64,000 bases of DNA from an uncultured Poribacteria bacterium (GCA_951813565.1 OX638351.1:3410492-3474491); one strand, 5' to 3'; counted from the stretch's first letter, positions 12,240-32,436 are shown. Notes: generated by a model not told the origin, from the sequence alone. Numbers and translations: made by a program.

Positions 12240-14312
<2,073 letters not shown>

Positions 14313-16813: not shown

Positions 16814-19800
16814 ATGAGAATTAAATATTATATCGTAATAAATTTACTTGTCTTTCTATGCTGTGTTTCGTTCGGTTATGCAGCAGAAGGCAAAAAAACG
16901 TTAGGGTTGTCGGAAGCTGCAATCCAAATACGAGATCAACTTTCTATCCGTAACATTAGAAAAGACCTTGCACGCTTATCAAGTCTTGAAAGCCGCGTTA
17001 CAGGTTATCCGCAAGCAGCAAATGGAAGTAAATATATTTTTGACCGTTTCGTTGAAATGGGATTGAAGAATGTTGAAAGTCGTGAATTTACTGTCACAGT
17101 TCCTATTGATTATGGTAATAGTGCTATTGACATCCTTTCTGCTGATGGTACGGTGCAACACACGTTCCCACTCAAACCGTTGTGGCCGAACCTTGTCCGA
17201 ACATCCCTTCTTGCCGATGGTGTCAAACATACTGTTGAAGCAGGAGAAACCCTCGAAAAAATCGCAGAAAACTACGCTGTCCCGCTAACAACTATTGCAG
17301 AAAACCCACACAACCAATATTTACCTACACCTGTTGTGGAGGGGAACACGGTTTTCATACCAACTGGCGGTCTTACCGGGCCCTTATTTTACGGAGACGA
17401 TGCCCAACTTGCAGATTTCAACGGAAGTAAAGTCGGCGGCTTTTGGTACAGGCTCCAAGAAGGTGATACACTGGCTTCACTAGCGAGACGTTATCGCGTT
17501 ACGAAAGCGAGTATAACCGATGATGTTCTCAATGGACATCTGCAGAAAGCTTCCGATGGCATTGATAACAATGAAGATGGTACTGTGGATGAATATGGCG
17601 AAATTCCGCTGTTATCAGAGATTCTTGGATGGGCGACAGATGGCATTGACAACGATGCTGATGGTTGGACAGACGAAATTCCCGGCGATGCCACAGATGG
17701 TGTTGATAATAACAAAGACGGCCGGATTGACGAGACAGGCGAATTCATCGCCGCAAGCGAATCCGATATCTTTATCCCCAAAGGCGCGATCGTTCTTGCC
17801 GAGTTTAATTCGGGTACCCGATGGATCAACGCTGCCATGCTTGGTGCCTCCGCTGTTATTTTTATCGAACCAGAAACAACAATCCGAGGCGAAGCAGAAA
17901 ACAAATTCCTCACTGTACCAGCCAACATTCCCCGATTTTGGATTTCTAATACAGATGCTGTTCAATTAAAAGATTTTCTTGCCACAGGTGAAGAGGTCAA
18001 TGTTCGCTTGCGCGGTAAAATGAAATGGGAACGACGCGTCGGTCAAAACATTCGTGGCTTTTTAGAAGGTGGCGATCCTGTCCTACGCGATGAACTAGTC
18101 GTCGTTACCGCATATTACGATTCTATGTCAGTCGTACCGGCAATTGCCCCTGGTGCTGACCCAACTTGTGGGATTGCTGTCCTAATGGAGCTTGCACGTC
18201 TGTTCGGACAACCGCAATACCGCCCTGGTCGTTCAGTACTATTTGTTGCTGTTGACGCGCATTTCCAAGGTTTAGCTGGCATGCGCGCATTTATGGAAGG
18301 TATTGGACAAGATATTGTCGGGTCAGCAACTGATTCCCCTGGAACCCCTACTTTGCAAGGGTTAAGAAGGGGTTTGTCAAATGATATTATCGAGTTTGAA
18401 GAATTAGGACGCAAACTATTACTTTCCATTGATCGGAGTATTTTGGTTGACTTGGACGCGGATTTTTACCACGGCGTGCACGGGATAAAAGAAGACCTTG
18501 AATCGCTCTCCACAACGTTGACAGGACTCTCTACAACCCGTTCTCAAATTGATTGGTTACACAGAGCGCAACGAGATTTCTCAGAACGCCAGAAAAAACA
18601 GGTGGATCGCAACCGAAAACGCGAAAAACAGGGATTCACAGAGGAAGAAAAATCAAGACTCGAAGCGAATCTCGTTCGGTTTGAAAAAGAAGCATTGCAA
18701 ACGACACACTTCCTTCGCGAGATTGTTAACCGACTGGGACAGATTCGGACATCCGCCTTGAAAACGAGTAAGGATGCTCAACGAGAACTCATTGAAACTA
18801 TCGCATTGCCTATTGCACGATTAGACACATGGGCAGTGGATAGGCTGATGCGCGAACTTGAATCAGGCGAGATAGATGACCGATACGACACGCATCCAAA
18901 CGCATCATACCTGTTACCGATGAAGGATGGAACCGATTATGAAGTGCCAACACCTGACGATCTACCACCAGAATTATTATCCGAAATTGAACAATTGAAC
19001 AAGACTCTTGCCAATTGGGAGATGAGTGATCAGCGTAAATTTGCTTTGATGTGGACACCTGACAAAATACTTGACCGCCACTTAGATTTGCCGACTCTCA
19101 GAAAAGCGAGAGATGCACGAAAGACCCTTGCAAACACAACTGAATCTAAGGAAGATGCCATACCACGAGAGCGAGTACTTCTGGAAAAAATAAAGGAAAA
19201 TCTCAAGGACACCGCTACCATTGAAAATCAAATTAAAGAAGCTATTACGAAATTGAGCAGTGATCGTGAGCACGATCTTCCACCTGAAGTATTAACGCAA
19301 TATCTAACTGAAGCATCACAAGAACGGATTAATAGAATTGATGATCAACTCCAGCAACGTTTGACCGAAGCAACTTCAGCATCTGTGGTAGGTGAAGCTG
19401 GAGATGGTTCATCTGAAAATATTCTAATTGAGGATTTGGCACGCGATAAGCAAGGCATTTTTGAAATTGCACTGCGGAATGCCCGTTTAGAACGGACGCG
19501 TATCCAGTATCTCCTTGATTCCCATGAAACCCTCACACGTGAGTTTCTTGATGAGGAGTTGCTAATTCTGAAAAGTTATCTTTCAGGTGAGGAGGTTGCA
19601 CAAGCAAAAGAGGCACGCAAACATATTGCCGCCTATCTGGTTGAAGCCGAAATCCTACAAGCAGTCAAACAGAACGCAGCTTCAGATGTGATCGCTCTTG
19701 AAAATCTAATCAAGCAGCTCCCATCGCTAACAAGGGATATAGATGCACAAACGAAGGTGCTTCTTCGCGATAATATGCTCACGCTAAGGAATGCGCGATT

Positions 19801-22800
19801 CCGAAACATTCAGAGCAGAGTTGAGAAGATGTCGCGCATAAGCGAGATAGAATATAATCGCAAACTCGCTCAGATTGAAGCCGCAGTTGCACTACAAGAC
19901 CTATTCAACCGATACTATACCTCTCTTTTCTGTAGCATTGACCTTTCCTCTCAATCGAATCAGTTCGGTGTATTTAACAAAGGATGGTTTTATGACCAAC
20001 AACCGGAATTTGTGTTACGGCGAGAGTTCGCGAGTATTGGCAATAAACTCGCTGCTTATGCAGCTGATGCTGATTTCGGTGTCCGCGTGAGGAAATTATG
20101 GCGAGCAACAGACGATCAGATTCGTCAAGCGGTTATGGCGCGACAGTGGTCAGTGGCAAGTCAGATTTCTGATAAGGCAGACCTTGAAGGGAAAACGCTT
20201 GAGACTCTGCTTAGCGCACACTATGGTAAACTCACAGGTTTAGGCGGTGTTAGCCGACTCATGAAGATGCAGTTTGAGCAGTGGCGAAACCGAGGTGAAC
20301 CGTCTGAAGATATGCTTAAGGATATGGACTATATCCGCAAAGAGGTAGAACGGTTTATCCGAAACGATGTGCGCAGCGCAAAGAAAAACCGAAAAAACAG
20401 TATCCGCATGCGTGAACAGTTAGACGCTATGCTAAGACTCCGGCACGAAGACCCCGACACATTTACTGAAGATGAGATAGAGGACATTAAAACATTAATC
20501 TCAATTGTAGGATTGGGCGGCGGTAGTAACTTTGTCAATGCAATTTCCGCGAGTGGTGGAAAAACGTGGAAAACCTATATCCCAGGGAAAATCGCCTTTG
20601 ATAGTGAGGTCGCAACACTTGTTGGTAAAACAGGCATCGCCTTTGCAACGATTGAAGACGCGCGCGTCCTTACCGATACACCGCTTGATACGATTGATCG
20701 CGTTGATCTACGTGAAGATGGCAATCTACATCAACAAGCAAAAACATTGGCATCTCTACTGATACAAGCGCTACGCGATCCACAGATGCCCACTGCAGCA
20801 CGCGTTGGAAACTTTTATTGTAACCTTTTCGGTGATGTAGTTGAATTCGATGCCCGTGAATCTGCGTTGCCAAATAAACCTGTACCATATCCGATTGTAA
20901 CGCTTCGCCGAAAACACAAAACTATGATGGGGGTACGCGGTGACTTATTCGCCATGGGCGATAATAAAGGTAATTTTGAAGTCGCTGGGTTGGCAATGGA
21001 AGGCAGAGCGACTCGCAGACTTGGTGGTGCGCAAGAAGTAGAGGCATATATCCTTGACTCCGATTCTGGGGATATTGTCTACGCTCCCGATTTAGGGAAT
21101 TACGGTGCTAAACTGCTACCGAATAAAGTGCCGATCAACACACGGCGACGGGGATGTCGGGTTGTCACTTTCCCGTGTGTATCCACAACTATCTATGATT
21201 TAGTTGACCAGCGCTATCTCCGTACCTTACGCGAATTAGAGGTGTATGATGCGTTATCCGATAGCCCACCCGAAAAATTCGGCGTGTCTAAACCGTGGCA
21301 GCAGGAAGGTGTTTCTGCAGCTGAACCGATCGCGCTTGTCTATAGCGAACCGCAAAGCCGTATAAAAATTGGGATGGCGTACGGACAAATCGGTAAACGT
21401 CTACTTCTTATTAAAGCGACCAAAAGCGGTATGAAAAATCCAACGCTTTACACTGGCGAAGGGTTTGTAGTCCGTGAAAACGGCAGTATCCGTCTCACGC
21501 CTTATGTTGTTGTACGCGATATGTGGTGGCTTGATGAGAATCGGTCTCGCCTTTACAAACGGTTCGGTATATCCAGTGATCGGCTTGATAAGTTGCATCA
21601 ATTTGCCAATGAATATCTCTCACGAGCAGAAACTGCACTTTTCCAAAACGACTACCAGCAGGCGCTGAAGTTGGCACGTGCTGCATGGGGATACGAATCA
21701 CGCGCCTATCCGGATGTAAAAAGAACTGGGAACGATGTCGTTAACGGCATTATGTTCTACCTTGCGCTCTTGATGCCGTTTGCCTACTTTATGGAACGGC
21801 TTATATTCGGTTTCCCAAACATTCACAAACAGATTTTAGCCACTTTTGGCATTTTCCTCCTTGTCTTTTACTTCTTAAGTCAGGTGCATCCAGCGTTCCA
21901 GATAACAACAACGCCCATAATTATCTTAATTGCCTTCATTGTTCTTGCGTTGACTGTGCTTGTCATCAGCATTATCGTTAGGAAATTTGAGGAACAACTT
22001 GAAAAGATACGTCAGCAGGGCAATAAGGTGTATAAAGCCGATGTCGGTAGGTTGAGCGCAAGTGCTGCAGCATTTAGCCTCGGTATCTCCAATATGCGGA
22101 AACGCAAAGGACGAACTATTCTTACGTGCGCCACATTGGTTATTCTCACGTTTACTGTCATCTCGTTTACATCGGTGCGGACGTTTATGCGTCCTAACCG
22201 AACCAGTTTGCCACAAGTTACACCGCGTTATACAGGCTTACTCATTCGCGATCAGTATTGGCGTCCTCTTGAAGAACCTATCCTTAACTCAATTCTAAAC
22301 GATATGCAGAAGACGCAAATTACTGTAAATGATTTAGAACGACTTCTGGAACAGAAAAATCTAATTCTTGCAAAGCAAGGGCAAACGCCACTGGATATAC
22401 CTGCAGCAATTGCAGGATTGCAGGAAAGTGGGTTTATCAAAAATGTTGACGAAGAACCGATTCTCGCTGTTCAAAATGTTGTCGCGCCACGCGCATGGTA
22501 CCAGTCCTCTGGAACAGGGGATCAATCTTTTGTACAACTGACGCGAAGCCCGAACACACAAGACACTGCACCACCGACACGCCCGCTCACAGGTGAACCG
22601 TTGAGCTTCGCCGCAAACATGCTTGTTGGCATGAGTGAGTCGGAACCCGCAGTCACTGGTATTGATCGCTATCTCCAATATGGAAAATGGTTTAATCGTG
22701 ATGATGCTGACAATTGGCCAACCGAGTGGCCCTACGCAATCGTTCTTCCGAAAGGGATGGCAGATCTTTTGAAACTAACCGAAAGTGATATGGGGAAAGC

Positions 22801-24097
22801 GACAATCTCTGTTTATGGTGCTGATTTTACCGTTGTCGGTGTTTTGGGGATAGGATTCAAGGATTTGACTGATAACGATGGCGAAGAAATGACACCTGTA
22901 GATTACCAATTGATGCAGCAGCAACAGAGTAGAGGTGGCACAGGCGATGAAACGCTTGAGGGGGAACTTCAAAAATATCTCCATCTCACCCCAGATAGCA
23001 TTGCAGTTTTGCCTTATGAAGTTGTCATGAACCAAGGCGGAACACTTAGAAGCGTTGCAGTCAACATGGAACCTCAAGAGAACGATCCGAAACTATTAGG
23101 TGCAATTGATAAACTTGATCTTATCATGGCACCGCTGATGAACCGCATTGCGCTTGACTTTTTTGTTGGACGCGACAAAGATACCTATCTTTATAGCAGT
23201 ATTGGTATGACCAGTTTTAGCGGCATGGGCAACCTATTTGTGCCAATTCTGATTGCTGCGTTGATTGTTCTAAATACCATGCTCGGTGCAGTTTATGAGC
23301 GCGTCCGCGAAATAAGCATTTACAGTTCTGTTGGACTCGCGCCTATCCATATCGCTTTCCTCTTCCTTGCCGAAGCGTGTGTATATGCGATTGTTGGCGC
23401 TGTTTTAGGGTATCTAATGGGACAGGTGATCGCAACAACATTGGTGCATTTCGGTTGGCTCGCGGGCTTAACGCTAAACTATTCTTCAATGTCTACAGTC
23501 GTGGCGACAGTTATTGTGATGATTGTGGTGCTGCTCAGTACGCTTTACCCTGCTATAAAAGCATCCCGCATGGCAGTGCCAGATATTGAACGAAAATGGA
23601 AGTTGCCTGAACCTGAAGGCGATATATGGCATTTCAATCTACCGTTTACCGTTTTAGCGGAAGAAGCACTTGGCTTGAACGTCTTTATGCGCGATTATTT
23701 TGATGCACATGCCGATGAGTCTGCCAGCGATTTCTATACAGACAACGTTACTTTCAGTTCTGCTGAAGAGGATTCTTATGAGATTGGGATGATGGTCTGG
23801 TTAGCGCCTTACGATTTAGGTGTAAGTCAATCTATCCAATTTATCACTTCGCCTGTCGGTGGAGAAGAAGAAGACCTTTTCAAAATCACATTAGATGTGC
23901 ACCGCGAAAGTGGTGAGATAGCGTCATGGAAACGTGTCAATCGTCGTTTCCTCAATTTGTTGCGAAAACAGTTGCTGATATGGCGAACCTTCAGCGTTGA
24001 TATCCGCTCAGAATTCCATGAACGGGGTAGAACCGAAAGCACTGATACGCCAGAGGGTACCGGGCAATTGGATCCCGTCGTGGCACCGGCGGATTAG
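16814..24097 (+). CDS. giant (2427 aa) multidomain envelope protein: signal/TM - 2x LysM - TSP3-like Ca-binding repeats - PA domain - M28-peptidase-like (apparently degenerate) domain - coiled coils - C-terminal MacB/FtsX-type permease module
   Basis: LysM: HTVEAGETLEKIAENYAVPLTTIAEN and YRLQEGDTLASLARRYRVTKASI. Ca-binding repeats: DGIDNNEDGTVDEYGE / DGIDNDADGWTDE / DGVDNNKDGRIDETGE. PA plus M28-like: VVTAYYDSMSV...GADPTCGIAVLMELARLF...VLFVAVDAHFQGLAGMRAF, with the usual His/Asp/Glu-Glu zinc-ligand positions appearing substituted. C-terminus contains TM RTILTCATLVILTFTVISF, then a roughly 350-aa loop, then FtsX-like 3-TM LIAALIVLNTMLGAVYERVREISIYSSVGLAPIHIAFLFLAEACVYAIVGAVLGYLMG. Confidence 0.85.
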   Translation: MRIKYYIVINLLVFLCCVSFGYAAEGKKTLGLSEAAIQIRDQLSIRNIRKDLARLSSLESRVTGYPQAANGSKYIFDRFVEMGLKNVESREFTVTVPIDYGNSAIDILSADGTVQHTFPLKPLWPNLVRTSLLADGVKHTVEAGETLEKIAENYAVPLTTIAENPHNQYLPTPVVEGNTVFIPTGGLTGPLFYGDDAQLADFNGSKVGGFWYRLQEGDTLASLARRYRVTKASITDDVLNGHLQKASDGIDNNEDGTVDEYGEIPLLSEILGWATDGIDNDADGWTDEIPGDATDGVDNNKDGRIDETGEFIAASESDIFIPKGAIVLAEFNSGTRWINAAMLGASAVIFIEPETTIRGEAENKFLTVPANIPRFWISNTDAVQLKDFLATGEEVNVRLRGKMKWERRVGQNIRGFLEGGDPVLRDELVVVTAYYDSMSVVPAIAPGADPTCGIAVLMELARLFGQPQYRPGRSVLFVAVDAHFQGLAGMRAFMEGIGQDIVGSATDSPGTPTLQGLRRGLSNDIIEFEELGRKLLLSIDRSILVDLDADFYHGVHGIKEDLESLSTTLTGLSTTRSQIDWLHRAQRDFSERQKKQVDRNRKREKQGFTEEEKSRLEANLVRFEKEALQTTHFLREIVNRLGQIRTSALKTSKDAQRELIETIALPIARLDTWAVDRLMRELESGEIDDRYDTHPNASYLLPMKDGTDYEVPTPDDLPPELLSEIEQLNKTLANWEMSDQRKFALMWTPDKILDRHLDLPTLRKARDARKTLANTTESKEDAIPRERVLLEKIKENLKDTATIENQIKEAITKLSSDREHDLPPEVLTQYLTEASQERINRIDDQLQQRLTEATSASVVGEAGDGSSENILIEDLARDKQGIFEIALRNARLERTRIQYLLDSHETLTREFLDEELLILKSYLSGEEVAQAKEARKHIAAYLVEAEILQAVKQNAASDVIALENLIKQLPSLTRDIDAQTKVLLRDNMLTLRNARFRNIQSRVEKMSRISEIEYNRKLAQIEAAVALQDLFNRYYTSLFCSIDLSSQSNQFGVFNKGWFYDQQPEFVLRREFASIGNKLAAYAADADFGVRVRKLWRATDDQIRQAVMARQWSVASQISDKADLEGKTLETLLSAHYGKLTGLGGVSRLMKMQFEQWRNRGEPSEDMLKDMDYIRKEVERFIRNDVRSAKKNRKNSIRMREQLDAMLRLRHEDPDTFTEDEIEDIKTLISIVGLGGGSNFVNAISASGGKTWKTYIPGKIAFDSEVATLVGKTGIAFATIEDARVLTDTPLDTIDRVDLREDGNLHQQAKTLASLLIQALRDPQMPTAARVGNFYCNLFGDVVEFDARESALPNKPVPYPIVTLRRKHKTMMGVRGDLFAMGDNKGNFEVAGLAMEGRATRRLGGAQEVEAYILDSDSGDIVYAPDLGNYGAKLLPNKVPINTRRRGCRVVTFPCVSTTIYDLVDQRYLRTLRELEVYDALSDSPPEKFGVSKPWQQEGVSAAEPIALVYSEPQSRIKIGMAYGQIGKRLLLIKATKSGMKNPTLYTGEGFVVRENGSIRLTPYVVVRDMWWLDENRSRLYKRFGISSDRLDKLHQFANEYLSRAETALFQNDYQQALKLARAAWGYESRAYPDVKRTGNDVVNGIMFYLALLMPFAYFMERLIFGFPNIHKQILATFGIFLLVFYFLSQVHPAFQITTTPIIILIAFIVLALTVLVISIIVRKFEEQLEKIRQQGNKVYKADVGRLSASAAAFSLGISNMRKRKGRTILTCATLVILTFTVISFTSVRTFMRPNRTSLPQVTPRYTGLLIRDQYWRPLEEPILNSILNDMQKTQITVNDLERLLEQKNLILAKQGQTPLDIPAAIAGLQESGFIKNVDEEPILAVQNVVAPRAWYQSSGTGDQSFVQLTRSPNTQDTAPPTRPLTGEPLSFAANMLVGMSESEPAVTGIDRYLQYGKWFNRDDADNWPTEWPYAIVLPKGMADLLKLTESDMGKATISVYGADFTVVGVLGIGFKDLTDNDGEEMTPVDYQLMQQQQSRGGTGDETLEGELQKYLHLTPDSIAVLPYEVVMNQGGTLRSVAVNMEPQENDPKLLGAIDKLDLIMAPLMNRIALDFFVGRDKDTYLYSSIGMTSFSGMGNLFVPILIAALIVLNTMLGAVYERVREISIYSSVGLAPIHIAFLFLAEACVYAIVGAVLGYLMGQVIATTLVHFGWLAGLTLNYSSMSTVVATVIVMIVVLLSTLYPAIKASRMAVPDIERKWKLPEPEGDIWHFNLPFTVLAEEALGLNVFMRDYFDAHADESASDFYTDNVTFSSAEEDSYEIGMMVWLAPYDLGVSQSIQFITSPVGGEEEDLFKITLDVHRESGEIASWKRVNRRFLNLLRKQLLIWRTFSVDIRSEFHERGRTESTDTPEGTGQLDPVVAPAD

Positions 24098-24126
24098 ATA
24101 AATCAGAATCTGACTGAACAAGGAAA

Positions 24127-24324
24127 ATGTATATGGAAAAATTAGCAAGCGTTATTATTATCATTGGGACTGTTCTATGGTTTATTAGCGTTCTGTTTTT
24201 GGGAGGGCGTTGGCAGTGGCAAATGTTGGCAGCACTTATATTAACTATCGGCATCTTCCTCGCTCATTTTTGGGAAGAACTCAGCGAAGAAAAGAATAAG
24301 AATACACCGAAAGATGATAATTGA
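24127..24324 (+). CDS. small two-TM membrane protein (65 aa)
   Basis: Two hydrophobic helices (VIIIIGTVLWFISVLFLGG and ALILTIGIFLAHFW). Sits 30 nt after the giant gene. Confidence 0.4.
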   Translation: MYMEKLASVIIIIGTVLWFISVLFLGGRWQWQMLAALILTIGIFLAHFWEELSEEKNKNTPKDDN

Positions 24325-24412
24325 AGACTCTTGGAGTATAAAGCAGCACGTTAGAAATCGGGGTTAGAAACCCCTCCTACAAGAGCGTTTGGAAAAAAAG
24401 GAGAATATTTAA

Positions 24413-26401
24413 TTGGCGCGAGAGAGAATCTCACAAGCAGATGAATGGCAAACGTGGGCACAACGCTACGACATAGAAGGCGGCATCCGAACCTTTGAAT
24501 CTGGATTGACGGGCAAAGTGTTCTTCGGTGCACTTTTTGTCGGTTTGCTCATGATGCCCGGCTCCATCTATCTGAGTTATGTATCTGGTCAATCAGGTGC
24601 AGCGGCTGCCCCTTGGGTAGCAGTTATCTTGTTCACCGAATTAGCCAGACGTTCCTTCACCACGGCACGTCGTCAAGAACTCTATATGCTGCTAAGCCTC
24701 ACTGGTGCAGCAGTCGGCAGCGGTATGCAATATCGGAGTTTTATTTGGTATGCATATTTTATAAACACACCGCAAGCCATTTCTTATGAAATTGCCGACA
24801 AAATACCCGCATGGGTTGTGCCAGCAGGTGATTCCTTAGCCATTGCGAGCCGAAGTCTGCTACATCCTGACTGGTTGTTGCCTATAGGTATCTACCTCGC
24901 GGGGAAGTTTCTTGGGACTCTGCGGGTTGTCAGTGGTCAGTATATTCTCTTTAGACTTACTGCTGACCTTGAACGGCTTCCCTATCCGATGGCACCGATT
25001 ACAGCACAAGGTGCAACTGCGTTAGCTGAAACAACTGGTAAACAAGAAACATGGCGATGGCAAGTCTTTTCTATCGGGTCTATGGCAGGCTTAATATGGG
25101 GATTCATCTACATCGGCGTTCCTGCTCTCACTGGCGTGATGATGAGCCAACCGATACAAATTTTGAAGATACCGTGGATAGATTTTACGCAAAGTATTGA
25201 AGGATTCGCGCCGACAGGGGTCTTTGCGCTTCGAACCGACTTCGGACAGATGCTCTTCGGATTCGTCTTGCCGTTTCCAGTGGTGATGTCGGAGTTTGTT
25301 ACCGCGATGCTTTCGCAATTTGTTGTCAATCCACAAATTCTCTACAGAAACGAGATATTACATCAATGGGAACCTGGACTTGATGTGCGCGCGACTGGGC
25401 TCTTCAACGATCTCGATTTCTGGAGGAGTTACGGCATAGGTAAAACGTTTAGCCTCGGTCTTGTTGGCATGGCTGCCTCTGTCCCAATGCTTTTCAAACT
25501 TCGCAGTACCCAGAAAAAGGCGGGAGAACGTGGGTCACTTGCCACACCACCGAACCGTGGTGATTTTCCATTATGGCTTATGGGAACACTATGGTTGATC
25601 GGTATGGGTGGATTTGTCTGGCTCATCCATTGGATGGTACCGAATTTCCCACTGAGTTTCCTACTTGGATTCGCGTTCTTATATACGCCAATTAATTCAT
25701 ATATCACCGCAAGGACGTTCGGCGTGCTCGGCCGTGATCTATTTGAAATACCTTATTTGCATGAGATCACTTTTATTCTCAGCCGGTACGAGGAGATTGA
25801 TATCTGGTTTGCCCCGCTACCTGACGAAGATTACGGAGCAGGCACACAAGGATGGCGCGTGCTTGAACTTACCGGAACAACTTTTACATCAAACCTTGCT
25901 GCCACGCTTCTGATTATGCCTATCCTGATTGTTAGTGGAATTGTGGTACAGCACTTTATCTGGCAAATAGCACCAATACCGAGCGCACAATATCCATTTG
26001 TTCAGATGATGTGGCCGATTAACGCAACAAACGAATGTCTCATGAAAACATCACTGCGCGATGGGAATAGTGAGATAATACAAGCCATTCGAGGTGATTA
26101 TGTTGCGGCAGGATTTACCTCCAGTCTCGCGATCTATGGACTGCTTTGGGTGTTAAAATATCCGTCAATGTGGTTTTACGGTATTATTGGTGGAATTGGT
26201 GCTGATCCGGGCAGTATGGTTGCGCGGTTACTCGGGGCCATCATCGGTAGATTCTATATGATTAAGCGGTTCGGTTTGAAGCGGTGGTTTATGTTCAATC
26301 CGGTACTGGCAGCAGGCTTTGCTTGTGGTGTGGGACTGATCGGGATGGGTACCGTTGCCATTGCCCTTGTCTCTAAAGCGGTCATTGTTAAGCCGTTTTA
26401 G
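24413..26401 (+). CDS. large polytopic integral membrane protein (662 aa), unknown family
   Basis: At least 14 predicted hydrophobic helices. TTG start with AAGGAG SD 8 nt upstream. No catalytic motif recognised. Confidence 0.6.
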   Translation: MARERISQADEWQTWAQRYDIEGGIRTFESGLTGKVFFGALFVGLLMMPGSIYLSYVSGQSGAAAAPWVAVILFTELARRSFTTARRQELYMLLSLTGAAVGSGMQYRSFIWYAYFINTPQAISYEIADKIPAWVVPAGDSLAIASRSLLHPDWLLPIGIYLAGKFLGTLRVVSGQYILFRLTADLERLPYPMAPITAQGATALAETTGKQETWRWQVFSIGSMAGLIWGFIYIGVPALTGVMMSQPIQILKIPWIDFTQSIEGFAPTGVFALRTDFGQMLFGFVLPFPVVMSEFVTAMLSQFVVNPQILYRNEILHQWEPGLDVRATGLFNDLDFWRSYGIGKTFSLGLVGMAASVPMLFKLRSTQKKAGERGSLATPPNRGDFPLWLMGTLWLIGMGGFVWLIHWMVPNFPLSFLLGFAFLYTPINSYITARTFGVLGRDLFEIPYLHEITFILSRYEEIDIWFAPLPDEDYGAGTQGWRVLELTGTTFTSNLAATLLIMPILIVSGIVVQHFIWQIAPIPSAQYPFVQMMWPINATNECLMKTSLRDGNSEIIQAIRGDYVAAGFTSSLAIYGLLWVLKYPSMWFYGIIGGIGADPGSMVARLLGAIIGRFYMIKRFGLKRWFMFNPVLAAGFACGVGLIGMGTVAIALVSKAVIVKPF

Positions 26402-26430
26402 CCAAAATTCTCTCGTGGTGGAAAATCGGT

Positions 26431-27378
26431 ATGGACTGGACTCTTTTTGGTTGGGCAGGCATTCAGTTAGAGATACCGACAACTTGGGAAATCAGTGGTA
26501 TCAGCGGCGATGAGAAGAACGGTTACCTTCGGTTAGATGACGCTGAGATGCCTCGGTTAGAACTCAAATGGGCAAAGACACGGAAAAAGAAACCTGACCT
26601 ACACAAAACACTCGACGAATACTTCAAGTTAGTCCGTAAAAACTACAAACGCGGTGGTAATGTCTCATTTCGTAGGAACGTTGACCTTATTAAAGACGAG
26701 GATTTTTTAAAAGGTCACACTGTCCTTGGTTTTAGTTGGAAGGGAGGTATCCGCGCAAATGGATTGATCATCCATAGTCCCGATACTAAACGGATCACCA
26801 TTGTCCAAGTCATGGGACGGCTCAAAGAAAACTGGCGTCCTACGGTACTACGCATCTTTCAATCTATTTCGGACCAAGGAGACCCGAAAAACACCGTCTG
26901 GAGTGCGTATGGACTGAGGCTTGCTGTTCCGAAAAACTATAAGTTAGAAAGCCAGAAACTTCTCAGCGGATATCTATTGTTTGCATTTACAAGAGGTAAA
27001 AGTCGTAAACTTAGTATTGAACGCTACGGTCCTGCGGAGGTGTTATTAAACGAATTTAGTTCAGAACCGAATCCTTTAGAGACTTGGTTTCGGGCGCGCT
27101 ACGCTAAAGCGATTCGTGGTTATGGGTTTGAAGTGACACCACATGAAGAGCACGGAGACGAACGCATCACGTTTGTCGGACAGCAGACACGACTTTACGA
27201 TAGTATGCCATTTTCACCCTTACTAGTACTTGATAAACTCCGAAAACGGGTAAGACTTACGTTTTTTATTTGGCATTGTTATCATACCAACCGTATCTAT
27301 GTGGTGCAATCAATTGGACGCCATGAGACCTCTGAGAAACTTGCACAAGAGGTCGCAAAAAGTATTCACTGCCACTAA
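26431..27378 (+). CDS. hypothetical protein (315 aa)
   Basis: Protein-like ORF 30 nt downstream of the membrane protein. No recognisable motif. Confidence 0.5.
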   Translation: MDWTLFGWAGIQLEIPTTWEISGISGDEKNGYLRLDDAEMPRLELKWAKTRKKKPDLHKTLDEYFKLVRKNYKRGGNVSFRRNVDLIKDEDFLKGHTVLGFSWKGGIRANGLIIHSPDTKRITIVQVMGRLKENWRPTVLRIFQSISDQGDPKNTVWSAYGLRLAVPKNYKLESQKLLSGYLLFAFTRGKSRKLSIERYGPAEVLLNEFSSEPNPLETWFRARYAKAIRGYGFEVTPHEEHGDERITFVGQQTRLYDSMPFSPLLVLDKLRKRVRLTFFIWHCYHTNRIYVVQSIGRHETSEKLAQEVAKSIHCH

Positions 27379-27547
27379 GATTGAGATAGTGAATATTCAA
27401 TAATAGTCAGAACAACATCAATTGACCCTTAAGGGTATATGAAAAAAGAAACAGAGATACTCAATTTTTTTGACATTCCGGTTGAACACTTTCCCGATAG
27501 AAGTGTCAGATGGTTGTTCCAAGACAAGGAGAATGTCCGAGGGTTGT

Positions 27548-28913
27548 TAGCACTCCCCGTCAAACCCCCTGCCTTTAGGTAGGGGATGTCCACGGCGAAA
27601 GTTTTGATTTAAAATATACTTTTCAATCTAATCACAATGTGGTATAATATATCATACTATAGTGTAACTCTTGAAGTGATAAAAGACTATATTGAAGGTC
27701 AAAGTGGTCAATGAGAAAATCTCACAAGTTCAAACTTCAACACCAATCTAACACAATCAAACTTGGTAATATGCTTGATGATATGTGGGAAATCCATCTA
27801 CATATCATGCGTTTGGCACGTAGGTATTATCGCATGTTCGGCAAAAATTTGTCTGCGTATCGTCTGAAGGCACACGTCACAAAACTTAAAAAGACAACTA
27901 AACCGCATTGGGCAGCCTTGCCGAGCCAAGTTGTGCAAGACATTGTGCTGCATGGTAAATCTCAAGACGCTTTCTTTGAGAATATCGAAGACCGAAAAGC
28001 GGGCAAAACAACGCGTAAAGTGGATAGACCGAAAATCAAACCGCGCCACAAATACAACGCCATGACCTTCACACAAGCAGGCTACAAACTTGAAGGGAAC
28101 CGTATCAAAATCAACTGTATAGATACATGGTTTTCCTTTCACAAACACCGTGAAATCAAAGGTGTCATCAAGACGATAACGATCAAACGTGACAGGTGCG
28201 GTGACTATTGGATATGCTTTTCGTGTGAGAATGTTGACGATTCCGAACCCAAACCCAAGAGGGGTAAGAGCGCAGGATTTGATTATGGAAACAAAACATT
28301 CCTCACAAGCGACGAAGGGGACACAATAGAATCCCCGCAGTTTTTCAAACAATCACTCAACACGTTGCGATCTCTCAACAAAGCACTCAGTCGTAAAGTC
28401 AAAGGTTCTAACAACTATTATCGTGCGTGCCGTGCTTTGGCAAGGCAACACAGAAAGGTTGCCCGACAAAGAGAAGATTGGCAATGGAAACTTGCCTCAA
28501 AACTTTGTGTAGAGTTTGACACACTCATTTTTGAAACGCTGAACCTTGACGGTATGAAACGATTATGGGGACGTAAAGTTTCTGACCATTCTTTCTACCA
28601 GTTTCTTCAGATATTGGAACAGAAGTGTGCCAAACACGGCAAAAAACTTGTGCAAATCTCTCAATGGATAGCAACAACAAAACCTTGTAGTGATTGTGGA
28701 TACCCTAACAAAGAACTCTCTCTTTCTGATAGGCAGTGGACATGCCCCAAATGTGGCTCACACCACGACAGAGACATCAATGCTGCTATCAATATCAAAC
28801 AGGCAGGCTTGGCTGCCTAAAGTGGAGCGACAATAAGACGGTGGACGCTAAGCGAAAACCGCAGTCGCAAGGAAGCACAAGCCCCTACCTTTAGGTAGTG
28901 GGTACCTATGACA
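27548..28913 (+). mobile_element. IS200/IS605-family TnpB-only insertion element (IS1341-like), copy 1
   Basis: Left end hairpin CCCCCTGCCTTTAGGTAGGGG. TnpB ORF in between. Right end GCCCCTACCTTTAGGTAGTGGGTACCTATGACA, the region expected to encode the omega/reRNA. Roughly 96% identical to the inverted copy at 59351..60720. No tnpA. Confidence 0.85.
27711..28820 (+). CDS. tnpB: TnpB (OrfB) RuvC-like RNA-guided nuclease of IS200/IS605 family
   Basis: 369 aa. C-terminal zinc finger CSDCG...C.KCG and RuvC-III ...DRDINAAINI. Typical TnpB N-terminus MRKSHKFKL.... Confidence 0.9.
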   Translation: MRKSHKFKLQHQSNTIKLGNMLDDMWEIHLHIMRLARRYYRMFGKNLSAYRLKAHVTKLKKTTKPHWAALPSQVVQDIVLHGKSQDAFFENIEDRKAGKTTRKVDRPKIKPRHKYNAMTFTQAGYKLEGNRIKINCIDTWFSFHKHREIKGVIKTITIKRDRCGDYWICFSCENVDDSEPKPKRGKSAGFDYGNKTFLTSDEGDTIESPQFFKQSLNTLRSLNKALSRKVKGSNNYYRACRALARQHRKVARQREDWQWKLASKLCVEFDTLIFETLNLDGMKRLWGRKVSDHSFYQFLQILEQKCAKHGKKLVQISQWIATTKPCSDCGYPNKELSLSDRQWTCPKCGSHHDRDINAAINIKQAGLAA

Positions 28914-28929
28914 AATTCTCTCAAGTGAG

Positions 28930-29847
28930 TTGGTGGAATTGATTGATTTTAGCCAACTTACACAAATTAACAGGAGTTTTATTCCAAACACGCTTCGCGA
29001 ACAAGAGTCTGACATCGTTTTTAGCGTCCCTTTTCAACACGAATCGAAAACTAACGAGATACTTATCTATATTCTCATTGAACACCAATCAACAGTTGAT
29101 GTTACAATGGGATTTCGATTGTTGTTTTACATGACGCAGATATGGGATTTTCAACGTAGGGAGTGGGAATCGAACAATGTTTCCAAAAGTGAGCGGCGTT
29201 TTCGCCCAATCCTTCCGATTGTGTATTACACTGGCGCGCAGCAGTGGAAAACACCGTTGACTCTTGAGGCGATAATGGACATTCCTGATGTGCTTGCTCG
29301 CTTTGTCCCAAAATTTGATTCTTTGTTTCTAAGCGTAAAAGAAACAGATGAAGTGGATCTAACGAAAACTGGTCATCCATTGGGATGGTTGTTAACTGTA
29401 CTTCAAAAGGAACATGCAGACAAGGAAGCGATAAGTAGTGCGTTGCTTGAAGCTATATCTCACATTAACGCTCTTGATGAAGAACAAGCACAGCAGCGAC
29501 GGAGAGCAATTATCTATTTCTTGTTGTTGATATTGCATCGTCGTCCGGCTAAAGAACACGAAGATTTGATAGCACTTATTGACCAACATACACACGAGTT
29601 GGAGGTAGAAACCATGGCAAAATCAATGGCAGACGTTCTCAGAGAACAAGGTATTGAACAAGGCCAAACACGGGCAAAACAGGAGGCAGTACTTAAGCTC
29701 CTACAAATTCAATTTGGTGATGTGCCTGAGGATGTTTCTAAAAGAATTACTTCTATCCGTAGTATCTCAAGTCTTGATTCGCTCTTTGAGAAAACGGCTA
29801 CCGTTCAAACACTTGATGAAATTGATTGGCAAAACTATAATGACTAA
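28930..29847 (+). pseudogene. Rpn/YhgA-like recombination-promoting nuclease (PD-(D/E)XK, with C-terminal DUF4351), probably 5'-truncated by the TnpB element
   Basis: ILIYILIEHQSTVDVTMGFRLLFYMTQIW core of the YhgA-like family. DUF4351-like C-terminus VLKLLQIQFGDVPEDVSKRI. Lacks about 25 N-terminal residues typical of the family. In-frame upstream sequence is IS right-end DNA, with a stop at 28909. Confidence 0.6.
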
Positions 29848-29891
29848 TACCATATTAACCTAAAACTTGTTCATACGCTACAAAAAAAGAC

Positions 29892-30356
29892 ATGCTTAAC
29901 AAAGTTCTATATACCCTTAAACTAAAAAAACGACCTGATGTAGATAGAGGCAAAGTCCTCAAAGCATTTCCGCTACGCAATCAGTTGATAACGTGGGAAT
30001 TAGACGAAAAAGGTGAAGCCTCGCTCATCATTCCGCAGAAAGATAAATTCTGGGTTAGACTTACAAGTAAACTTTTTATGCTCCCCAATAAACGGGTTGT
30101 TGTGCTGGATAGCATCGGTACATACGTATGGGAAATGTGTGATGGGAAGCATACTATTTCACAGATTATCAAGGCACTCCAGAAAAAACATCAACTGACC
30201 CGAAAAGAAGCCGAAACTTCACTTTTTACCTTTGTCCAACAGCTCGGAAAACGAAATTTTATCCAATTTGCTATTCCGAGTGAAGAAAAACCGAATGAGG
30301 CAGCAGCACAAAAACCCGCGCAACAGAAGCGTTTCGGATTTTTGGCAAAGCGATAA
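29892..30356 (+). CDS. PqqD-family protein (RiPP-recognition-element-like peptide chaperone fold)
   Basis: VVVLDSIGTYVWEMCDGKHTISQIIKALQKKHQLTRKEAETSLFTFVQQLGKRNFI matches the PqqD 'N.TG..IWelldG..tv.eIv..L...y.v..e.a..dv..Fl..L...gll' pattern. Confidence 0.6.
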   Translation: MLNKVLYTLKLKKRPDVDRGKVLKAFPLRNQLITWELDEKGEASLIIPQKDKFWVRLTSKLFMLPNKRVVVLDSIGTYVWEMCDGKHTISQIIKALQKKHQLTRKEAETSLFTFVQQLGKRNFIQFAIPSEEKPNEAAAQKPAQQKRFGFLAKR

Positions 30357-30502: not shown

Positions 30503-31309
30503 ATGCAAGCAGAAATAGAGGGTGTACAACCAAATCTCGCTGAAACCCCAGAACGATTCCAGCGCCTTATTCCTAAAGAGAATACTGTTAGAGTCAGAAA
30601 CCTCATAAAACGTTATGAGATGGGAACAACGACTGTGGATGCGCTACGCGGTGTCAATTTCCAAATTCAACGCGGTGAATACATCTCTATTATGGGACCT
30701 TCTGGTTCTGGCAAATCTACGCTTTTTAATATGATTGGTGGATTAGACAAACCTACCGAAGGCAGAGTCTATATTGACGAAGTAGATATTGCACAGCTTG
30801 ACGCTTACGAGTTGGCGTGGCTGCGTTGTCGGAAAATCGGTTATATTTTCCAATCGTTCAATCTAATTCCTGTTATGACAGCACTTGAGAATGTCTCGCT
30901 CCCCATGATTTTTGCTGGTATGAGTGCCGATGAAAGCAGAGAAAAAGGCGTAGACCTGCTTTCTCTTGTTGGGTTGGGCGACCGCGTTCAACATAAACCG
31001 CTTGAACTCTCTGGTGGACAGCAGCAACGTGTCGCAATTGCCCGTTCCCTTGCTAACGACCCCGCTATTGTGTTAGCAGATGAACCGACAGGTAACTTAG
31101 ATACCAAAACAGGTCTTGAAATCATAGATTTGCTCCGCCGCCTCAATGATGAAAACGGCGTAACCATTATTACTGCAACACACGACCATAAGATGCTTGA
31201 TGTCTCTGACAGGATTTTCCATATGGTAGACGGCAAAGTTGACAAAATTGAGGCGCGCGATGAAATTGACCTTCACGTCGGAAAATTGGACGGTCAGGAA
31301 GTCGGATAA
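30503..31309 (+). CDS. ABC transporter ATP-binding protein, MacB/LolD/FtsE-type nucleotide-binding domain
   Basis: Walker A GPSGSGKST, signature LSGGQQQRVAIARSL, Walker B IVLADEPTGNLD, and H-loop ATHD. No permease gene adjacent. Confidence 0.9.
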   Translation: MQAEIEGVQPNLAETPERFQRLIPKENTVRVRNLIKRYEMGTTTVDALRGVNFQIQRGEYISIMGPSGSGKSTLFNMIGGLDKPTEGRVYIDEVDIAQLDAYELAWLRCRKIGYIFQSFNLIPVMTALENVSLPMIFAGMSADESREKGVDLLSLVGLGDRVQHKPLELSGGQQQRVAIARSLANDPAIVLADEPTGNLDTKTGLEIIDLLRRLNDENGVTIITATHDHKMLDVSDRIFHMVDGKVDKIEARDEIDLHVGKLDGQEVG

Positions 31310-31317
31310 ACTCCTCA

Positions 31318-32436
31318 ATGTCAATCTACAAACGTTTAGGTATCCGGACGGTTATTAACGGCAATGCAACTCTGACACGTCTTGGTGGTTCCATTATGCC
31401 GCCTGAAGTTATTGCAGCGATGGCTGATGCATCAAAACATTTTGTAGACATCATTGAACTTCAAAAACGTGTCGGCGAAGAAATAGCGAAACTTACCCAT
31501 AACGAAGCAGCCTATGTCTCCAATGGTGCTGCAGCTGCCCTGACGCTTAGCACTGCCGCCTGTATCACTGGACTTGATGCTGCTAAACGTGCCAAATTAC
31601 CCCATCTTGACAACTCAATGAAAAGTGAAGTCATCGTGCATCGTCATGGACGTGTCGGTTACGATTTTGCCGTGCGGCAGGTCGGTGTCACATTAGTGGA
31701 AATAGGAGACGAAAACGGCACAACACCTGACGAACTTGAAAACGCCATCACCGACAAGACCGCTGCAATCTTCTACTTTGCAAACCCCGGTAGAGAACAT
31801 CTTTGGGTGTCATACCAAAAAGGCATTGAAATTGCCAAAAAGCACGGTATCCCTTTGATTGTTGACGCTGCTGCACAGTTGCCTCCGCCAGAAAACTTGT
31901 GGCGTTTTACAGAGATGGGAGCAGATTTAGCGATGTTTAGCGGTGGAAAAGGGTTATGTGGTCCGCAAAGTAGTGGACTAATCGTTGGCAAAAAATCGCT
32001 GATTGAGGCTATCGCATTCAATGGTCCGCCCCATCCTTTCATCGGCAGAGGTATGAAGGTCGGCAAAGAAGAGATGGTCGGATTATTGGCAGCAGTTGAG
32101 TGGTACCTGAATCAAAACCACGACCAATTAATGCAGTCCTATGAAGAACAAGTCGCTTACTATACTGAGGTGTTTAAGGATATCCAAGGCGTTAGTGTGT
32201 ATCGCAGTTTCCCTTCTGAAGCAGGGCAACCGATGCCCCGCACCGAAATCCGATTTGACGCAGAACAACTCGGTATCACGCGCAATGAAATTCTTCATCA
32301 ACTACAGATAGGTGAACCTGCGATAGATATTGCTGGTGCAGGTGCGAACGGCGTACTTATCAATGGGCAAACCTTGATGCCGGGAGAAGTAGAAATTATT
32401 GCTAAAAGATTAAAGGAAATTCTACTTGAGTTGTAG
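31318..32436 (+). CDS. SelA-like PLP-dependent enzyme (COG1921-type L-seryl-tRNA selenium transferase-related protein)
   Basis: MFSGGKGLCGPQSSGLIVGKKSLIEAI matches the SelA Lys-PLP region [22 protein letters not shown]. At 372 aa it is shorter than a bona fide SelA. Confidence 0.65.
   Translation: MSIYKRLGIRTVINGNATLTRLGGSIMPPEVIAAMADASKHFVDIIELQKRVGEEIAKLTHNEAAYVSNGAAAALTLSTAACITGLDAAKRAKLPHLDNSMKSEVIVHRHGRVGYDFAVRQVGVTLVEIGDENGTTPDELENAITDKTAAIFYFANPGREHLWVSYQKGIEIAKKHGIPLIVDAAAQLPPPENLWRFTEMGADLAMFSGGKGLCGPQSSGLIVGKKSLIEAIAFNGPPHPFIGRGMKVGKEEMVGLLAAVEWYLNQNHDQLMQSYEEQVAYYTEVFKDIQGVSVYRSFPSEAGQPMPRTEIRFDAEQLGITRNEILHQLQIGEPAIDIAGAGANGVLINGQTLMPGEVEIIAKRLKEILLEL

Follow-up and report, generated by a model that had tools for sequence, protein, structure and literature searches.

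A conserved gene set encoding a giant FtsX-domain protein, an OPT-like transporter and an ABC ATPase, apparently split by nested mobile elements in a Poribacteria genome

To our knowledge, only a few type VII ABC systems exist, and those characterised (MacAB, LolCDE, FtsEX and YbbAP) each serve a distinct envelope process. Type VII systems do periplasmic work and pair with hydrolases (FtsEX-EnvC, PMC7668044; YbbAP-TesA, PMC12646458; MacB, reviewed in PMC5985334), and FtsEX systems regulate peptidoglycan hydrolases (PMC7668044, PMC10694151). Members of the OPT superfamily transport peptides or metal chelates. Here we describe a gene cluster whose parts have never been reported together, namely a giant M28-like ectodomain fused to a permease, an OPT-family transporter, a PqqD-like protein that is sometimes fused to FtsX, and a tandem-PsbP family; our literature search found no description of a system combining giant FtsX, OPT-like, 315-aa, PqqD-like and ATPase components. 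The system is conserved in poorly studied phyla, dominant sponge symbionts included. Solving it would give function to several "hypothetical" families at once and could show by what route these bacteria obtain peptides or chelates.

The window analysed is a 64,000-nucleotide stretch from a Candidatus Poribacteria bacterium, and positions are counted from its first letter. The first-pass annotation had placed three genes on the plus strand behind a giant gene and described their products as a 65-aa two-TM protein, a polytopic 662-aa protein with at least 14 helices and a soluble 315-aa protein. The three ORFs were found at those positions and on that strand, and the descriptions hold, as the hydropathy scan finds two TM segments in the first protein and zero in the third, and the AF2 model of the second contains about 16 long helices. 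The genes of the putative operon are as follows:

16814..24097, plus strand: giant 2427-aa envelope protein (Pfam LysM, PA, Peptidase_M28, MacB_PCD and FtsX)
24127..24324, plus strand: 65-aa membrane protein with two TM segments (6-24 and 31-49, hydropathy scan) and an acidic/basic C-terminal tail
24413..26401, plus strand: 662-aa protein, predicted from its fold and its homologues' OPT matches to be a divergent secondary transporter of the OPT/Yellow-Stripe-like superfamily with about 16 TM
26431..27378, plus strand: 315-aa cytoplasmic protein with two tandem Mog1/PsbP-like domains, by fold similarity
29892..30356, plus strand: 154-aa PqqD-like (RRE-type peptide-binding) cytoplasmic protein (Pfam PqqD PF05402, 45.2 bits, GA 23.4)
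30503..31309, plus strand: 268-aa LolD/YbbA/MacB/FtsE-type ABC ATPase (NCBIfam; intact Walker A, signature, Walker B and H-loop)

Spacers of 29 nt (24098-24126), 88 nt (24325-24412) and 29 nt (26402-26430) separate the giant gene and the three ORFs. All three ORFs are genuine genes: the 662-aa and 315-aa proteins have hundreds to thousands of homologues, and the 65-aa ORF keeps its place, behind the giant gene and ahead of the OPT-like gene, at 43 of the 47 Poribacteria loci sampled, with 36-92% identity (tblastn). The earlier statement that none of the three carries a nameable motif stands for the 65-aa protein, which has no family match in Pfam or NCBIfam, but not for the 662-aa protein (OPT superfamily) or the 315-aa protein (tandem Mog1/PsbP fold). 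The PqqD-like gene, which sits between an insertion and the ATPase gene, had been missed. Promoter and terminator scans returned chance level only.

The giant protein consists of a signal peptide, about 1600 aa of extracytoplasmic sequence (LysM, PA and an M28-like domain, together with about 900 aa matching no assigned family), four TM segments, a MacB periplasmic core, an FtsX bundle and a cytoplasmic tail of about 180 aa. Pfam FtsX matches residues 2143-2253 (1.1e-11) and MacB_PCD residues 1935-2038, and the hydropathy scan places a 350-aa loop between TM segments at 1768-1786 and 2142-2244. As in MacAB-TolC, LolCDE, FtsEX-EnvC and YbbAP-TesA, an FtsX four-helix bundle is thus combined with a MacB-type core domain between TM1 and TM2. 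Among PDB chains, the giant protein's C-terminus matches LolC, MacB, YtrF and LolF, with LolC as the best match for the FtsX module. By its sequence, the giant protein is a predicted permease subunit of a type VII ABC system. It also resembles FtsEX-EnvC and YbbAP-TesA in having an extracytoplasmic hydrolase-like module. However, unlike in the described type VII systems, the permease is fused behind its 1600-aa ectodomain and three extra TM helices, the second FtsX is either minimal (~200 aa, no periplasmic domain) or absent, adaptor and outer-membrane genes are absent, and the operon includes OPT-like, tandem PsbP-fold and PqqD-like genes. The Armatimonadota permease would be heterodimeric, like LolC/LolE; the small second FtsX is absent from Poribacteria, so the stoichiometry must differ between phyla.

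An ATPase of the LolD/YbbA/MacB/FtsE type encoded within the operon is a further likeness to type VII systems. Its motifs are intact, and its gene is linked to the cluster both in Armatimonadota and at 45 of 47 Poribacteria loci. Its NCBIfam scores were 236.9 bits for LolD, 221.9 for YbbA, 214.6 for the MacB NBD and 212.4 for FtsE. The equivalog cut-offs are 307.75 (LolD), 336 (YbbA) and 264.85 (FtsE), and the scores for these three families all fall below them, so the ATPase lies within the LolD/FtsE/MacB subfamily but is none of the named orthologues. Neither another FtsX domain nor another ABC ATPase was found in the 64-kb window. This, together with the synteny described below, supports the earlier suggestion that the ATPase is the partner of the giant protein's FtsX module, and we consider it likely that the ATPase is the motor that powers the giant protein.

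Gene order was compared across 47 species-representative Poribacteria loci. The giant gene was present in 46, the OPT-like gene in 47, the 315-aa gene in 46, the PqqD-like gene in 46 and the ATPase gene in 45, with order and strand unchanged: giant, 65-aa, OPT-like, 315-aa, PqqD-like, ATPase, with gaps usually shorter than 100 nt. The PqqD-like gene is a core member of the operon, found behind the 315-aa gene at 46 of the 47 loci; the ATPase gene comes directly after it (from an overlap to a gap of ~100 nt) in most of the 45 loci holding both. This order, joined by a minimal FtsX gene, recurs in Armatimonadota (loci L005/L077, L007, L060, L076, L085, L086 and L087), despite only 40-45% identity for the OPT-like protein and 24-30% for the 315-aa protein. 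Outside Poribacteria, 22 of about 28 informative loci have the giant gene directly before the OPT-like gene, a pairing that spans Planctomycetota, Brocadiia, Abditibacteriota, WS1 and Nitrospiraceae, and the OPT-like gene is the giant gene's most constant neighbour across phyla. In one sponge-associated Gemmatimonadota/Latescibacterota clade, the OPT-like gene occurs without the others. Several phyla have no 315-aa, PqqD-like or ATPase gene within 10 kb of the giant/OPT-like pair, which would fit the genes being mere neighbours, with an ATPase that serves a permease encoded elsewhere and three functionally independent genes. We regard this as highly improbable, however, given that order and strand are kept from Poribacteria to Armatimonadota at low identity, that insertions of unrelated DNA, which occur at different points, have not dispersed the genes, and that neither an FtsX domain nor an ABC ATPase occurs more than once in the 64 kb. 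The first-pass annotation had proposed an ancestral order of giant gene, membrane partners and ATPase that mobile DNA later split. The proposal survives with an addition: the ancestral order included the PqqD-like gene before the ATPase gene and, outside Poribacteria, also the small second FtsX gene.

In the window, the 315-aa gene is parted from the PqqD-like gene by a 2.5-kb block (27391-29869), an Rpn gene split by a TnpB element:

27441..27550, plus strand: 5' fragment of an Rpn/Transposase_31 (PD-(D/E)xK) gene, first 36 codons, translation MKKETEILNFFDIPVEHFPDRSVRWLFQDKENVRGLL
27551..28912, plus strand: IS200/IS605-type TnpB-only element, 1362 bp, inside the Rpn gene (TnpB ORF 27711-28820)
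28913..29847, plus strand: 3' part of the Rpn/Transposase_31 gene (Pfam Transposase_31, 3.5e-26; collinear with L054 13129-14087)

Pfam and NCBIfam confirmed TnpB (27711-28820), the Rpn-like ORF (28930-29847) and the LolD/MacB-type ATPase (30503-31309). TnpB scored 217.9 bits on NF040570 guided_TnpB (cut-off 100) and matched Pfam OrfB_IS605 and Cas12f1-like_TNB. Its element has subterminal hairpin repeats at 27564-27585 and 28882-28903 and no TnpA, and a second copy lies at 59447-60556 on the minus strand. A precise empty site was found in L054, which lacks exactly window positions 27551-28912 and has an intact 356-aa Rpn, whose N-terminus matches the 36-codon fragment of the window; gene, hairpins and empty site together identify an IS200/IS605 TnpB element. 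The whole Rpn and TnpB block is missing from L008 and L016, and in L008 window position 27390 is joined to 29870 with about 6 nt between. Hence the Rpn gene was inserted first and the TnpB element then entered it, as separate arrivals. The first-pass annotation was right that mobile DNA had inserted at the system; what it took for a truncated Rpn gene is one split by TnpB, and the two did not arrive as a single block. Nor does the operon end at the TnpB element, as it had supposed, since the conserved set continues beyond with the PqqD-like and ATPase genes. In relatives without the insertion (L008, L016 and L044), the 315-aa, PqqD-like and ATPase genes are directly contiguous, as that annotation's scheme requires. 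All six operon genes are intact despite the insertions. From these comparisons the genes almost certainly form one operon and one system, split in this genome by two nested mobile elements; synteny allows an orphan ABC ATPase to be reunited with its permease and the two nested insertions to be dated.

The ORF of the 662-aa protein starts with TTG after a GGAG motif, and its N-terminus is kept full length in homologues of 662 aa. Its AF2 model (pLDDT 80.8, pTM 0.80) had significant Foldseek matches in the PDB only to barley YS1 (7wst/7wsr; E 1e-9, probability 1.00, TM 0.61-0.66, 675 columns), the next-best match having E 0.02 and TM 0.10. The likeness to OPT/YS1 proteins (PF03169, 7wst) covers the whole length and extends to size and helix count. 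Unlike YS1, to which it is about 15% identical, the protein is not seen by OPT models: it had no Pfam or NCBIfam match at E<=0.1, OPT models included. Three full-length homologues with 41-44% identity (P0081, P0104 and P0105) scored 41.1, 45.5 and 28.3 bits on PF03169, whose gathering score is 25.8, in matches collinear with profile positions 69-621 of 623, and TIGR00728 was matched by 2 of the 47 family members. OPT membership is therefore reached transitively and by fold, not by the protein's own profile match. As judged from the predicted fold and the homologues, the protein is a divergent OPT/Yellow-Stripe-superfamily transporter; among known OPTs it represents a distinct bacterial branch, genetically tied to the giant FtsX protein. 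The 65-aa gene was not found in Armatimonadota by tblastn and is an accessory gene specific to Poribacteria.

The 315-aa protein resembles solved structures of the Mog1/PsbP-like fold. By sequence, it had no meaningful match in the PDB, and neither it nor 45 members of its family matched Pfam or NCBIfam (PsbP, DUF1795, DcrB and others). The family comprises about 1000 clusters at E<=1e-10 and is a large new one for which there is no Pfam model. In sequence it belongs to none of the Mog1/PsbP-fold families compared (PsbP, Mog1, DcrB, LpqN, the T6SS immunity proteins Tsi3/TplEi, and Eag/DUF1795 chaperones), from which it further differs in being cytoplasmic without a signal peptide, in its internal duplication, in a conserved CxxC...C...CH motif, and in being always encoded beside PqqD-like, FtsX and ABC genes. 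The motif, a probable Zn-binding site from its sequence, is ancestral to the family and partly lost in the clade of the window protein. We hold the fold and family assignments, those of the 662-aa and 315-aa proteins among them, with high confidence.

Some Mog1/PsbP-fold relatives (LpqN, DcrB, Eag chaperones) bind lipids or TM helices, which could indicate an extractor of lipids, lipoproteins or hydrophobic compounds of the LolCDE/YbbAP-TesA type, with roles of the OPT-like, 315-aa and PqqD-like proteins unrelated to peptide uptake. LolD and YbbA as best ATPase matches, LolC as best PDB match of the FtsX module, and the hydrolase partner of YbbAP, itself a type VII ABC transporter (PMC12646458), are in line with it. 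Nevertheless, we find such an extractor quite improbable: the ATPase scores all lie under the family cut-offs, the PA/M28-like ectodomain is unparalleled in Lol or YbbAP systems, and the tight cross-phylum linkage of giant and OPT-like genes would be left unexplained.

The PqqD-like protein shares with PqqD and RiPP recognition elements (RREs) a PqqD domain over the Pfam threshold, and more weakly matches lasso-peptide and SCM PqqD chaperones in NCBIfam. In Armatimonadota, its gene is followed by the minimal FtsX gene (L007, L087) or fused to FtsX (L005, 368 aa), a fusion that points to a structural subunit; we know of no RRE-type domain described in fusion with an FtsX membrane domain. With a peptidase-like domain and an ABC ATPase in the same operon, a RiPP-like maturation and export cassette might be considered, in which the PqqD-like protein recognises a leader, the M28-like domain removes it, the ABC components export the product, and the small ORF or another peptide is the precursor. 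This is very unlikely, however. Unlike RRE loci, the conserved cluster has no RiPP precursor, and among the conserved genes of about 60 loci there is no modifying enzyme such as a radical SAM, YcaO or cyclase; the 65-aa ORF encodes a two-TM protein of Poribacteria only, and the active site of the M28-like domain is degenerate. The FtsX fusion in L005 also speaks against it, and type VII ABC export from the cytoplasm is not known (PMC5985334).

The M28-like domain scored 35.5 bits on PF04389 (gathering score 21.3), in a match limited to profile positions 1-78 of 193. Across 18 sequences, those of the window protein and 17 homologues, it lacks equivalents of Aeromonas aminopeptidase His97, Glu151 and Glu152, which are replaced by Tyr/Phe, by His and by Phe/His/Gly/Leu, respectively; in the same alignment the position of Asp117 is ambiguous, and the later ligands Asp179 and His256 are not alignable. 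The domain thus does not show the co-catalytic zinc ligands and catalytic Glu of peptidase family M28, and from its sequence the ectodomain is probably non-catalytic. A PA domain followed by an M28 fold is also found in the transferrin receptor, nicalin and GCPII, and the giant protein has weak sequence matches to nicalin and glutamate carboxypeptidase III. The transferrin receptor and nicalin are catalytically inactive, and the giant protein resembles both in that canonical zinc and catalytic residues are replaced. Unlike in those pseudo-peptidases, a bacterial ABC permease here carries the module as its tip. The replacements make the arm more probably a ligand-binding or ligand-presenting device, or one of non-canonical chemistry, than a standard aminopeptidase; such chemistry stays conceivable because the replacing residues, Tyr/Phe for His97 and His for Glu151, are conserved in turn.

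The ectodomain also bears on an FtsEX-type role in cell-wall remodelling and recycling, in which an ATPase-driven FtsX would switch the LysM/M28-like ectodomain on peptidoglycan stem peptides and the OPT-like protein would recycle the peptides set free. The LysM of the Poribacteria giant protein, the presence of FtsE among the best ATPase matches (212 bits), the OPT importer adjoining the giant gene, and the precedent of FtsEX control over peptidoglycan hydrolases (PMC7668044, PMC10694151) all agree with this role. We judge it unlikely, though, as LysM is recorded in the Poribacteria versions only and not in the 1500-1600-aa Armatimonadota homologues, the M28-like domain misses its canonical catalytic residues, zero division or cell-wall genes are conserved nearby, and the periplasmic domain is of the MacB_PCD type.

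Our preferred reading is an operon in which a type VII motor is coupled to an OPT importer, and for this whole, with its layers of differing firmness, we lean towards acceptance. The giant protein and the ATPase, joined in Armatimonadota by the minimal second FtsX subunit, would form an ABC mechanotransducer like MacB, LolCDE, FtsEX and YbbAP. Cytoplasmic ATP hydrolysis would act through the FtsX bundle and periplasmic core domain on the 1600-aa extracytoplasmic arm, whose PA and M28-like module (in Poribacteria also LysM) may bind or present a peptide-like ligand or perform non-canonical chemistry. The OPT-like protein would then import the captured or released peptide, or peptide-like chelate, by secondary transport. 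On the cytoplasmic face, the tandem PsbP-like protein and the PqqD-like protein may serve the ATPase/FtsX engine as adaptors or regulators and might sense the imported peptide. Peptide capture and import as the function is a tentative proposal, and the lack of canonical catalytic residues weakens a simple reading in which a peptidase feeds an importer. Bolder, and in our estimate rather improbable, is an unrecognised type VII class in which an ATP-driven PA/M28-like pseudo-peptidase receptor arm, likened to the transferrin receptor, is physically coupled to the OPT/Yellow-Stripe-like importer, and the PqqD-like and Zn-binding tandem-PsbP subunits gate the motor by the imported ligand; this would amount to feedback-controlled capture and import of peptides or peptide-like metal chelates, conserved from Armatimonadota to sponge-symbiotic Poribacteria.

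Finally, the first-pass annotation had correctly seen no permease gene adjoining the ATPase gene, because the gene downstream encodes a DgaE/SelA-like PLP enzyme. Two clade-specific genes outside the core, assigned by Pfam/NCBIfam, follow the operon:

31318-32436, plus strand: trailing DgaE/SelA-like PLP enzyme
32845-33555, plus strand: metallo-beta-lactamase-fold protein

Of the 47 loci, 27 have the SelA-like gene behind the ATPase gene, and most of these also have the metallo-beta-lactamase gene next in line. Both occur only at loci whose OPT-like gene is at least ~87% identical to that of the window, and less closely related Poribacteria, like the other phyla, carry other genes behind the ATPase.

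On the forward strand, the giant gene (16814-24097, 2427 aa) is followed in our ORF table by a 65-aa ORF (24127-24324), a 662-aa ORF (24413-26401) and a 315-aa ORF (26431-27378), and the spacers between these four genes are 29, 88 and 29 nt, bearing out the three co-oriented genes that the first-pass annotation had placed behind the giant gene. The 662-aa ORF has a TTG start preceded by a GGAG motif, and this N-terminus is kept in the 662-aa homologues. The nearest homologues, from Candidatus Poribacteria, share 95-96% identity. The first-pass annotation had let the operon end at a TnpB element; however, a PqqD-like gene and an ABC ATPase gene continue the conserved order beyond the insertion. 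The features assigned by Pfam and NCBIfam downstream of the 315-aa gene are as follows.

27711-28820, + strand, TnpB
28930-29847, + strand, Rpn/Transposase_31 ORF
29892-30356, + strand, PqqD-like gene, just upstream of the ATPase gene
30503-31309, + strand, LolD/MacB-type ABC ATPase

The TnpB and the ATPase were thereby both confirmed, and the ATPase indeed lacks an adjacent permease, the gene on its 3' side encoding a DgaE/SelA-like PLP enzyme. The FtsX domain of the giant protein and this ATPase are the only ones of their kind found in the 64-kb window; as the ORFs around them are unrelated too, a second permease partner near the ATPase was rejected. A small second FtsX gene hidden in the window was also rejected, because tblastn with Armatimonadota proteins matched the PqqD-like part only. 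SelA-like and metallo-beta-lactamase genes were rejected as members of the system since they are found 3' of the ATPase in close relatives only. No Rfam family reached its gathering score across the entire window (1-64000), indicating that the operon has no riboswitch in front of it. Promoter and terminator scans gave chance-level results, also with respect to transcription across the insertion.

Synteny was examined in contigs with homologues together with 79 loci picked up by scanning species-representative genomes, queried with the window proteins. Related loci were gathered with the alignment of the 662-aa (OPT-like) family, the 315-aa alignment having no stretch conserved enough for this search. 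The order giant, 65-aa, OPT-like, 315-aa, PqqD-like, ATPase, on one strand, was invariant in 47 Poribacteria-type loci, in which these genes were present in 46, 43, 47, 46, 46 and 45 loci, respectively, and the missing genes are largely accounted for by contig ends. The gap between the 315-aa and PqqD-like genes is mostly below 200 nt in these loci (2513 nt in the window, the largest seen), and that between the PqqD-like and ATPase genes is usually -70 to +120 nt. The proposal that the ATPase was once contiguous with the other genes is upheld by this fixed order and these short gaps, and the operon inference was correct. Outside Poribacteria, the giant gene lies immediately 5' of the OPT-like gene in 22 of about 28 informative loci, from Planctomycetota, Brocadiia, Abditibacteriota, WS1, Nitrospiraceae and other groups. 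The conserved order speaks against the alternative that the genes are unrelated neighbours. Two observations weigh the other way: outside Poribacteria, the giant/OPT-like pair does not always have the 315-aa, PqqD-like and ATPase genes within 10 kb, and in sponge-associated MAGs labelled Gemmatimonadota, Latescibacterota or 'bacterium' (L059, L061, L065-L068) the OPT-like gene, with 44% identity, stands alone, none of the other four genes (giant, 315-aa, PqqD-like, ATPase) lying within 10 kb of it. We take the synteny to show one conserved operon. In Armatimonadota, the order is an M28-like-FtsX gene (~1500-1600 aa), OPT-like, a 315-aa homologue (24-30% identity), PqqD-like, a minimal FtsX (~200 aa) and ATPase. 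The minimal FtsX, which has no periplasmic domain, lies directly behind the PqqD-like domain (L007, 11166-12210; L087, 11018-12039), and PqqD and FtsX domains are fused in one 368-aa protein in locus L005 (13451-14557). This second FtsX subunit is absent from Poribacteria.

The splitting of the operon by mobile DNA, as the first-pass annotation had suggested, is seen from these comparisons: the Rpn and TnpB block at 27391-29869 is extra DNA relative to loci L008 and L016, and relative to L054 the extra DNA is limited to 27551-28912. At this site L054 has an uninterrupted Rpn gene of 356 aa (13017-14087), whose first 36 codons can be read in the window at 27441-27550. Hence the Rpn/Transposase_31 gene, formerly described as truncated, is instead in two pieces (27441-27550 and 28913-29847) with the TnpB element between them. 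This 1362-bp insert consists of TnpB and near-identical subterminal hairpins, one at each end. Since L008 and L016 have neither insertion and L054 has Rpn only, sequence comparison places the Rpn gene first, between the 315-aa and PqqD-like genes, followed by a TnpB-only IS200/IS605 element that entered the Rpn gene. A second TnpB copy (59447-60556, - strand), 91% identical at the protein level, indicates that the element is multi-copy in the genome. In other Poribacteria, same-strand inserts occur in the gap between the OPT-like and 315-aa genes or in that between the PqqD-like and ATPase genes, and carry either WD40 and TPR (eukaryote-like repeat) genes or HATPase_c and SduA_C genes, at the positions below.

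L011, 12773-13891 and 18408-20354, same strand as the operon, inserts
L031, 15615-17591, same strand as the operon, insert
L003, 14409-16337, same strand as the operon, insert

These different inserts indicate an operon that is tolerant of insertions in its intergenic gaps.

Pfam and NCBIfam searches with the 65-aa, 662-aa and 315-aa window proteins gave no direct match for any of them, and searching PDB sequences with profiles of the 662-aa and 315-aa families yielded no useful match. Hundreds of full-length homologues of the 662-aa protein were found, and the species set contains at least 594 relatives of it; those homologues outside Poribacteria share 40-45% identity, some are annotated 'peptide transporter', and three exceed the Pfam OPT gathering score with the model covered collinearly. 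An AF2 model built from an alignment of 47 sequences (pLDDT 80.8, pTM 0.80) has ~16 long helices, in agreement with the at least 14 counted earlier. Its sole match in the PDB was barley Yellow Stripe 1 (E 1e-9, TM 0.61-0.66, 675 columns), the runner-up having E 0.02 and TM 0.10. On the basis of the OPT-scoring homologues and this modelled fold, the 662-aa protein is placed in the OPT/YSL superfamily as a divergent branch. By a hydropathy scan, the 65-aa protein has two TM segments and the 315-aa protein has none, as had been claimed; the former has no family match, yet is positionally conserved in 43 of the 47 Poribacteria loci.

The 315-aa protein was modelled confidently (pLDDT 88.3, pTM 0.82) as two beta-rich halves that are alike, and profile-profile comparison of the halves (probability 87.8%, E 3.4e-6) supports an internal duplication. 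The family is large and has no Pfam model; clustered at 50% identity, it has 1804 representatives at E<=1e-3 and 1011 at E<=1e-10. In its alignment (A3, n=45), a CxxC at positions 116-119 is present in 32/45, Cys283 in 44/45 and the C-terminal Cys314-His315 in 42-43/45, a pattern suggesting a zinc site; the sponge-associated clade of the window has lost the CxxC and retained the other residues.

The giant protein begins with a signal peptide and an extramembrane region of ~1600 aa, followed by four TM segments. Next comes a MacB-type periplasmic domain of 350 aa, and the FtsX bundle and a cytoplasmic tail of 180 aa complete the chain. The extramembrane region includes LysM, PA and M28-like domains and ~900 aa without assignment, and a PDB sequence search with the 940-aa middle of the protein gave no matches. 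When the M28-like domains of the window protein and 17 homologues from several phyla are aligned to the Aeromonas aminopeptidase, Tyr or Phe stands in place of His97, His in place of Glu151, and Phe, His, Gly or Leu in place of Glu152; the window domain (18014-18400, giant residues ~420-500) has Tyr at the His97 zinc-ligand position and His-Phe for Glu151-Glu152. Nicalin, an inactive PA/M28 protein, is among the weak sequence matches. Given the conserved replacements and the nicalin match, canonical M28 catalysis is unlikely, and the domain is probably a pseudo-peptidase or has a non-canonical site.

The analysis thus shows one conserved operon, the folds and families of its parts, the membrane topology and intact ATPase motifs. 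In sequence and topology the system fits the type VII ABC machines, and by analogy it would work as they do (PMC5985334, PMC7668044, PMC12646458). The ATPase would power the giant protein's FtsX module, whose movement would be transmitted to the extracytoplasmic arm. Import of what this arm captures or releases would fall to the OPT-like protein, which is the partner found most constantly, and the PqqD-like and tandem-PsbP (315-aa) proteins may serve as adaptors or regulators on the cytoplasmic face. Besides unrelated neighbours, the rivals to this reading are an FtsEX-like cell-wall system, a RiPP cassette and a Lol/YbbAP-like extractor. The ATPase scores under the specific cut-offs of LolD, YbbA, FtsE and MacB. 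We found no description of the cluster in the literature on FtsX, M28, PqqD, OPT and Poribacteria combinations, nor any type VII-like system that combines an OPT-like transporter with a PqqD-like domain and a protein of tandem PsbP fold. Splitting by mobile DNA is ordinary; the conserved system underlying it is uncharacterised and occurs in several phyla.

Some loci carry additional genes. One Poribacteria lineage (L001, 7437-11998; L036, L037, L038, L040) has two tandem OPT-like paralogues, and L001 has an additional 243-aa gene without a family match upstream of the 315-aa gene. In Armatimonadota locus L087 (5601-9983), four small genes (DUF4190, DUF2752 and two without a family match) lie between the giant and OPT-like genes, and a TatA-like gene lies between the OPT-like and 315-aa genes.
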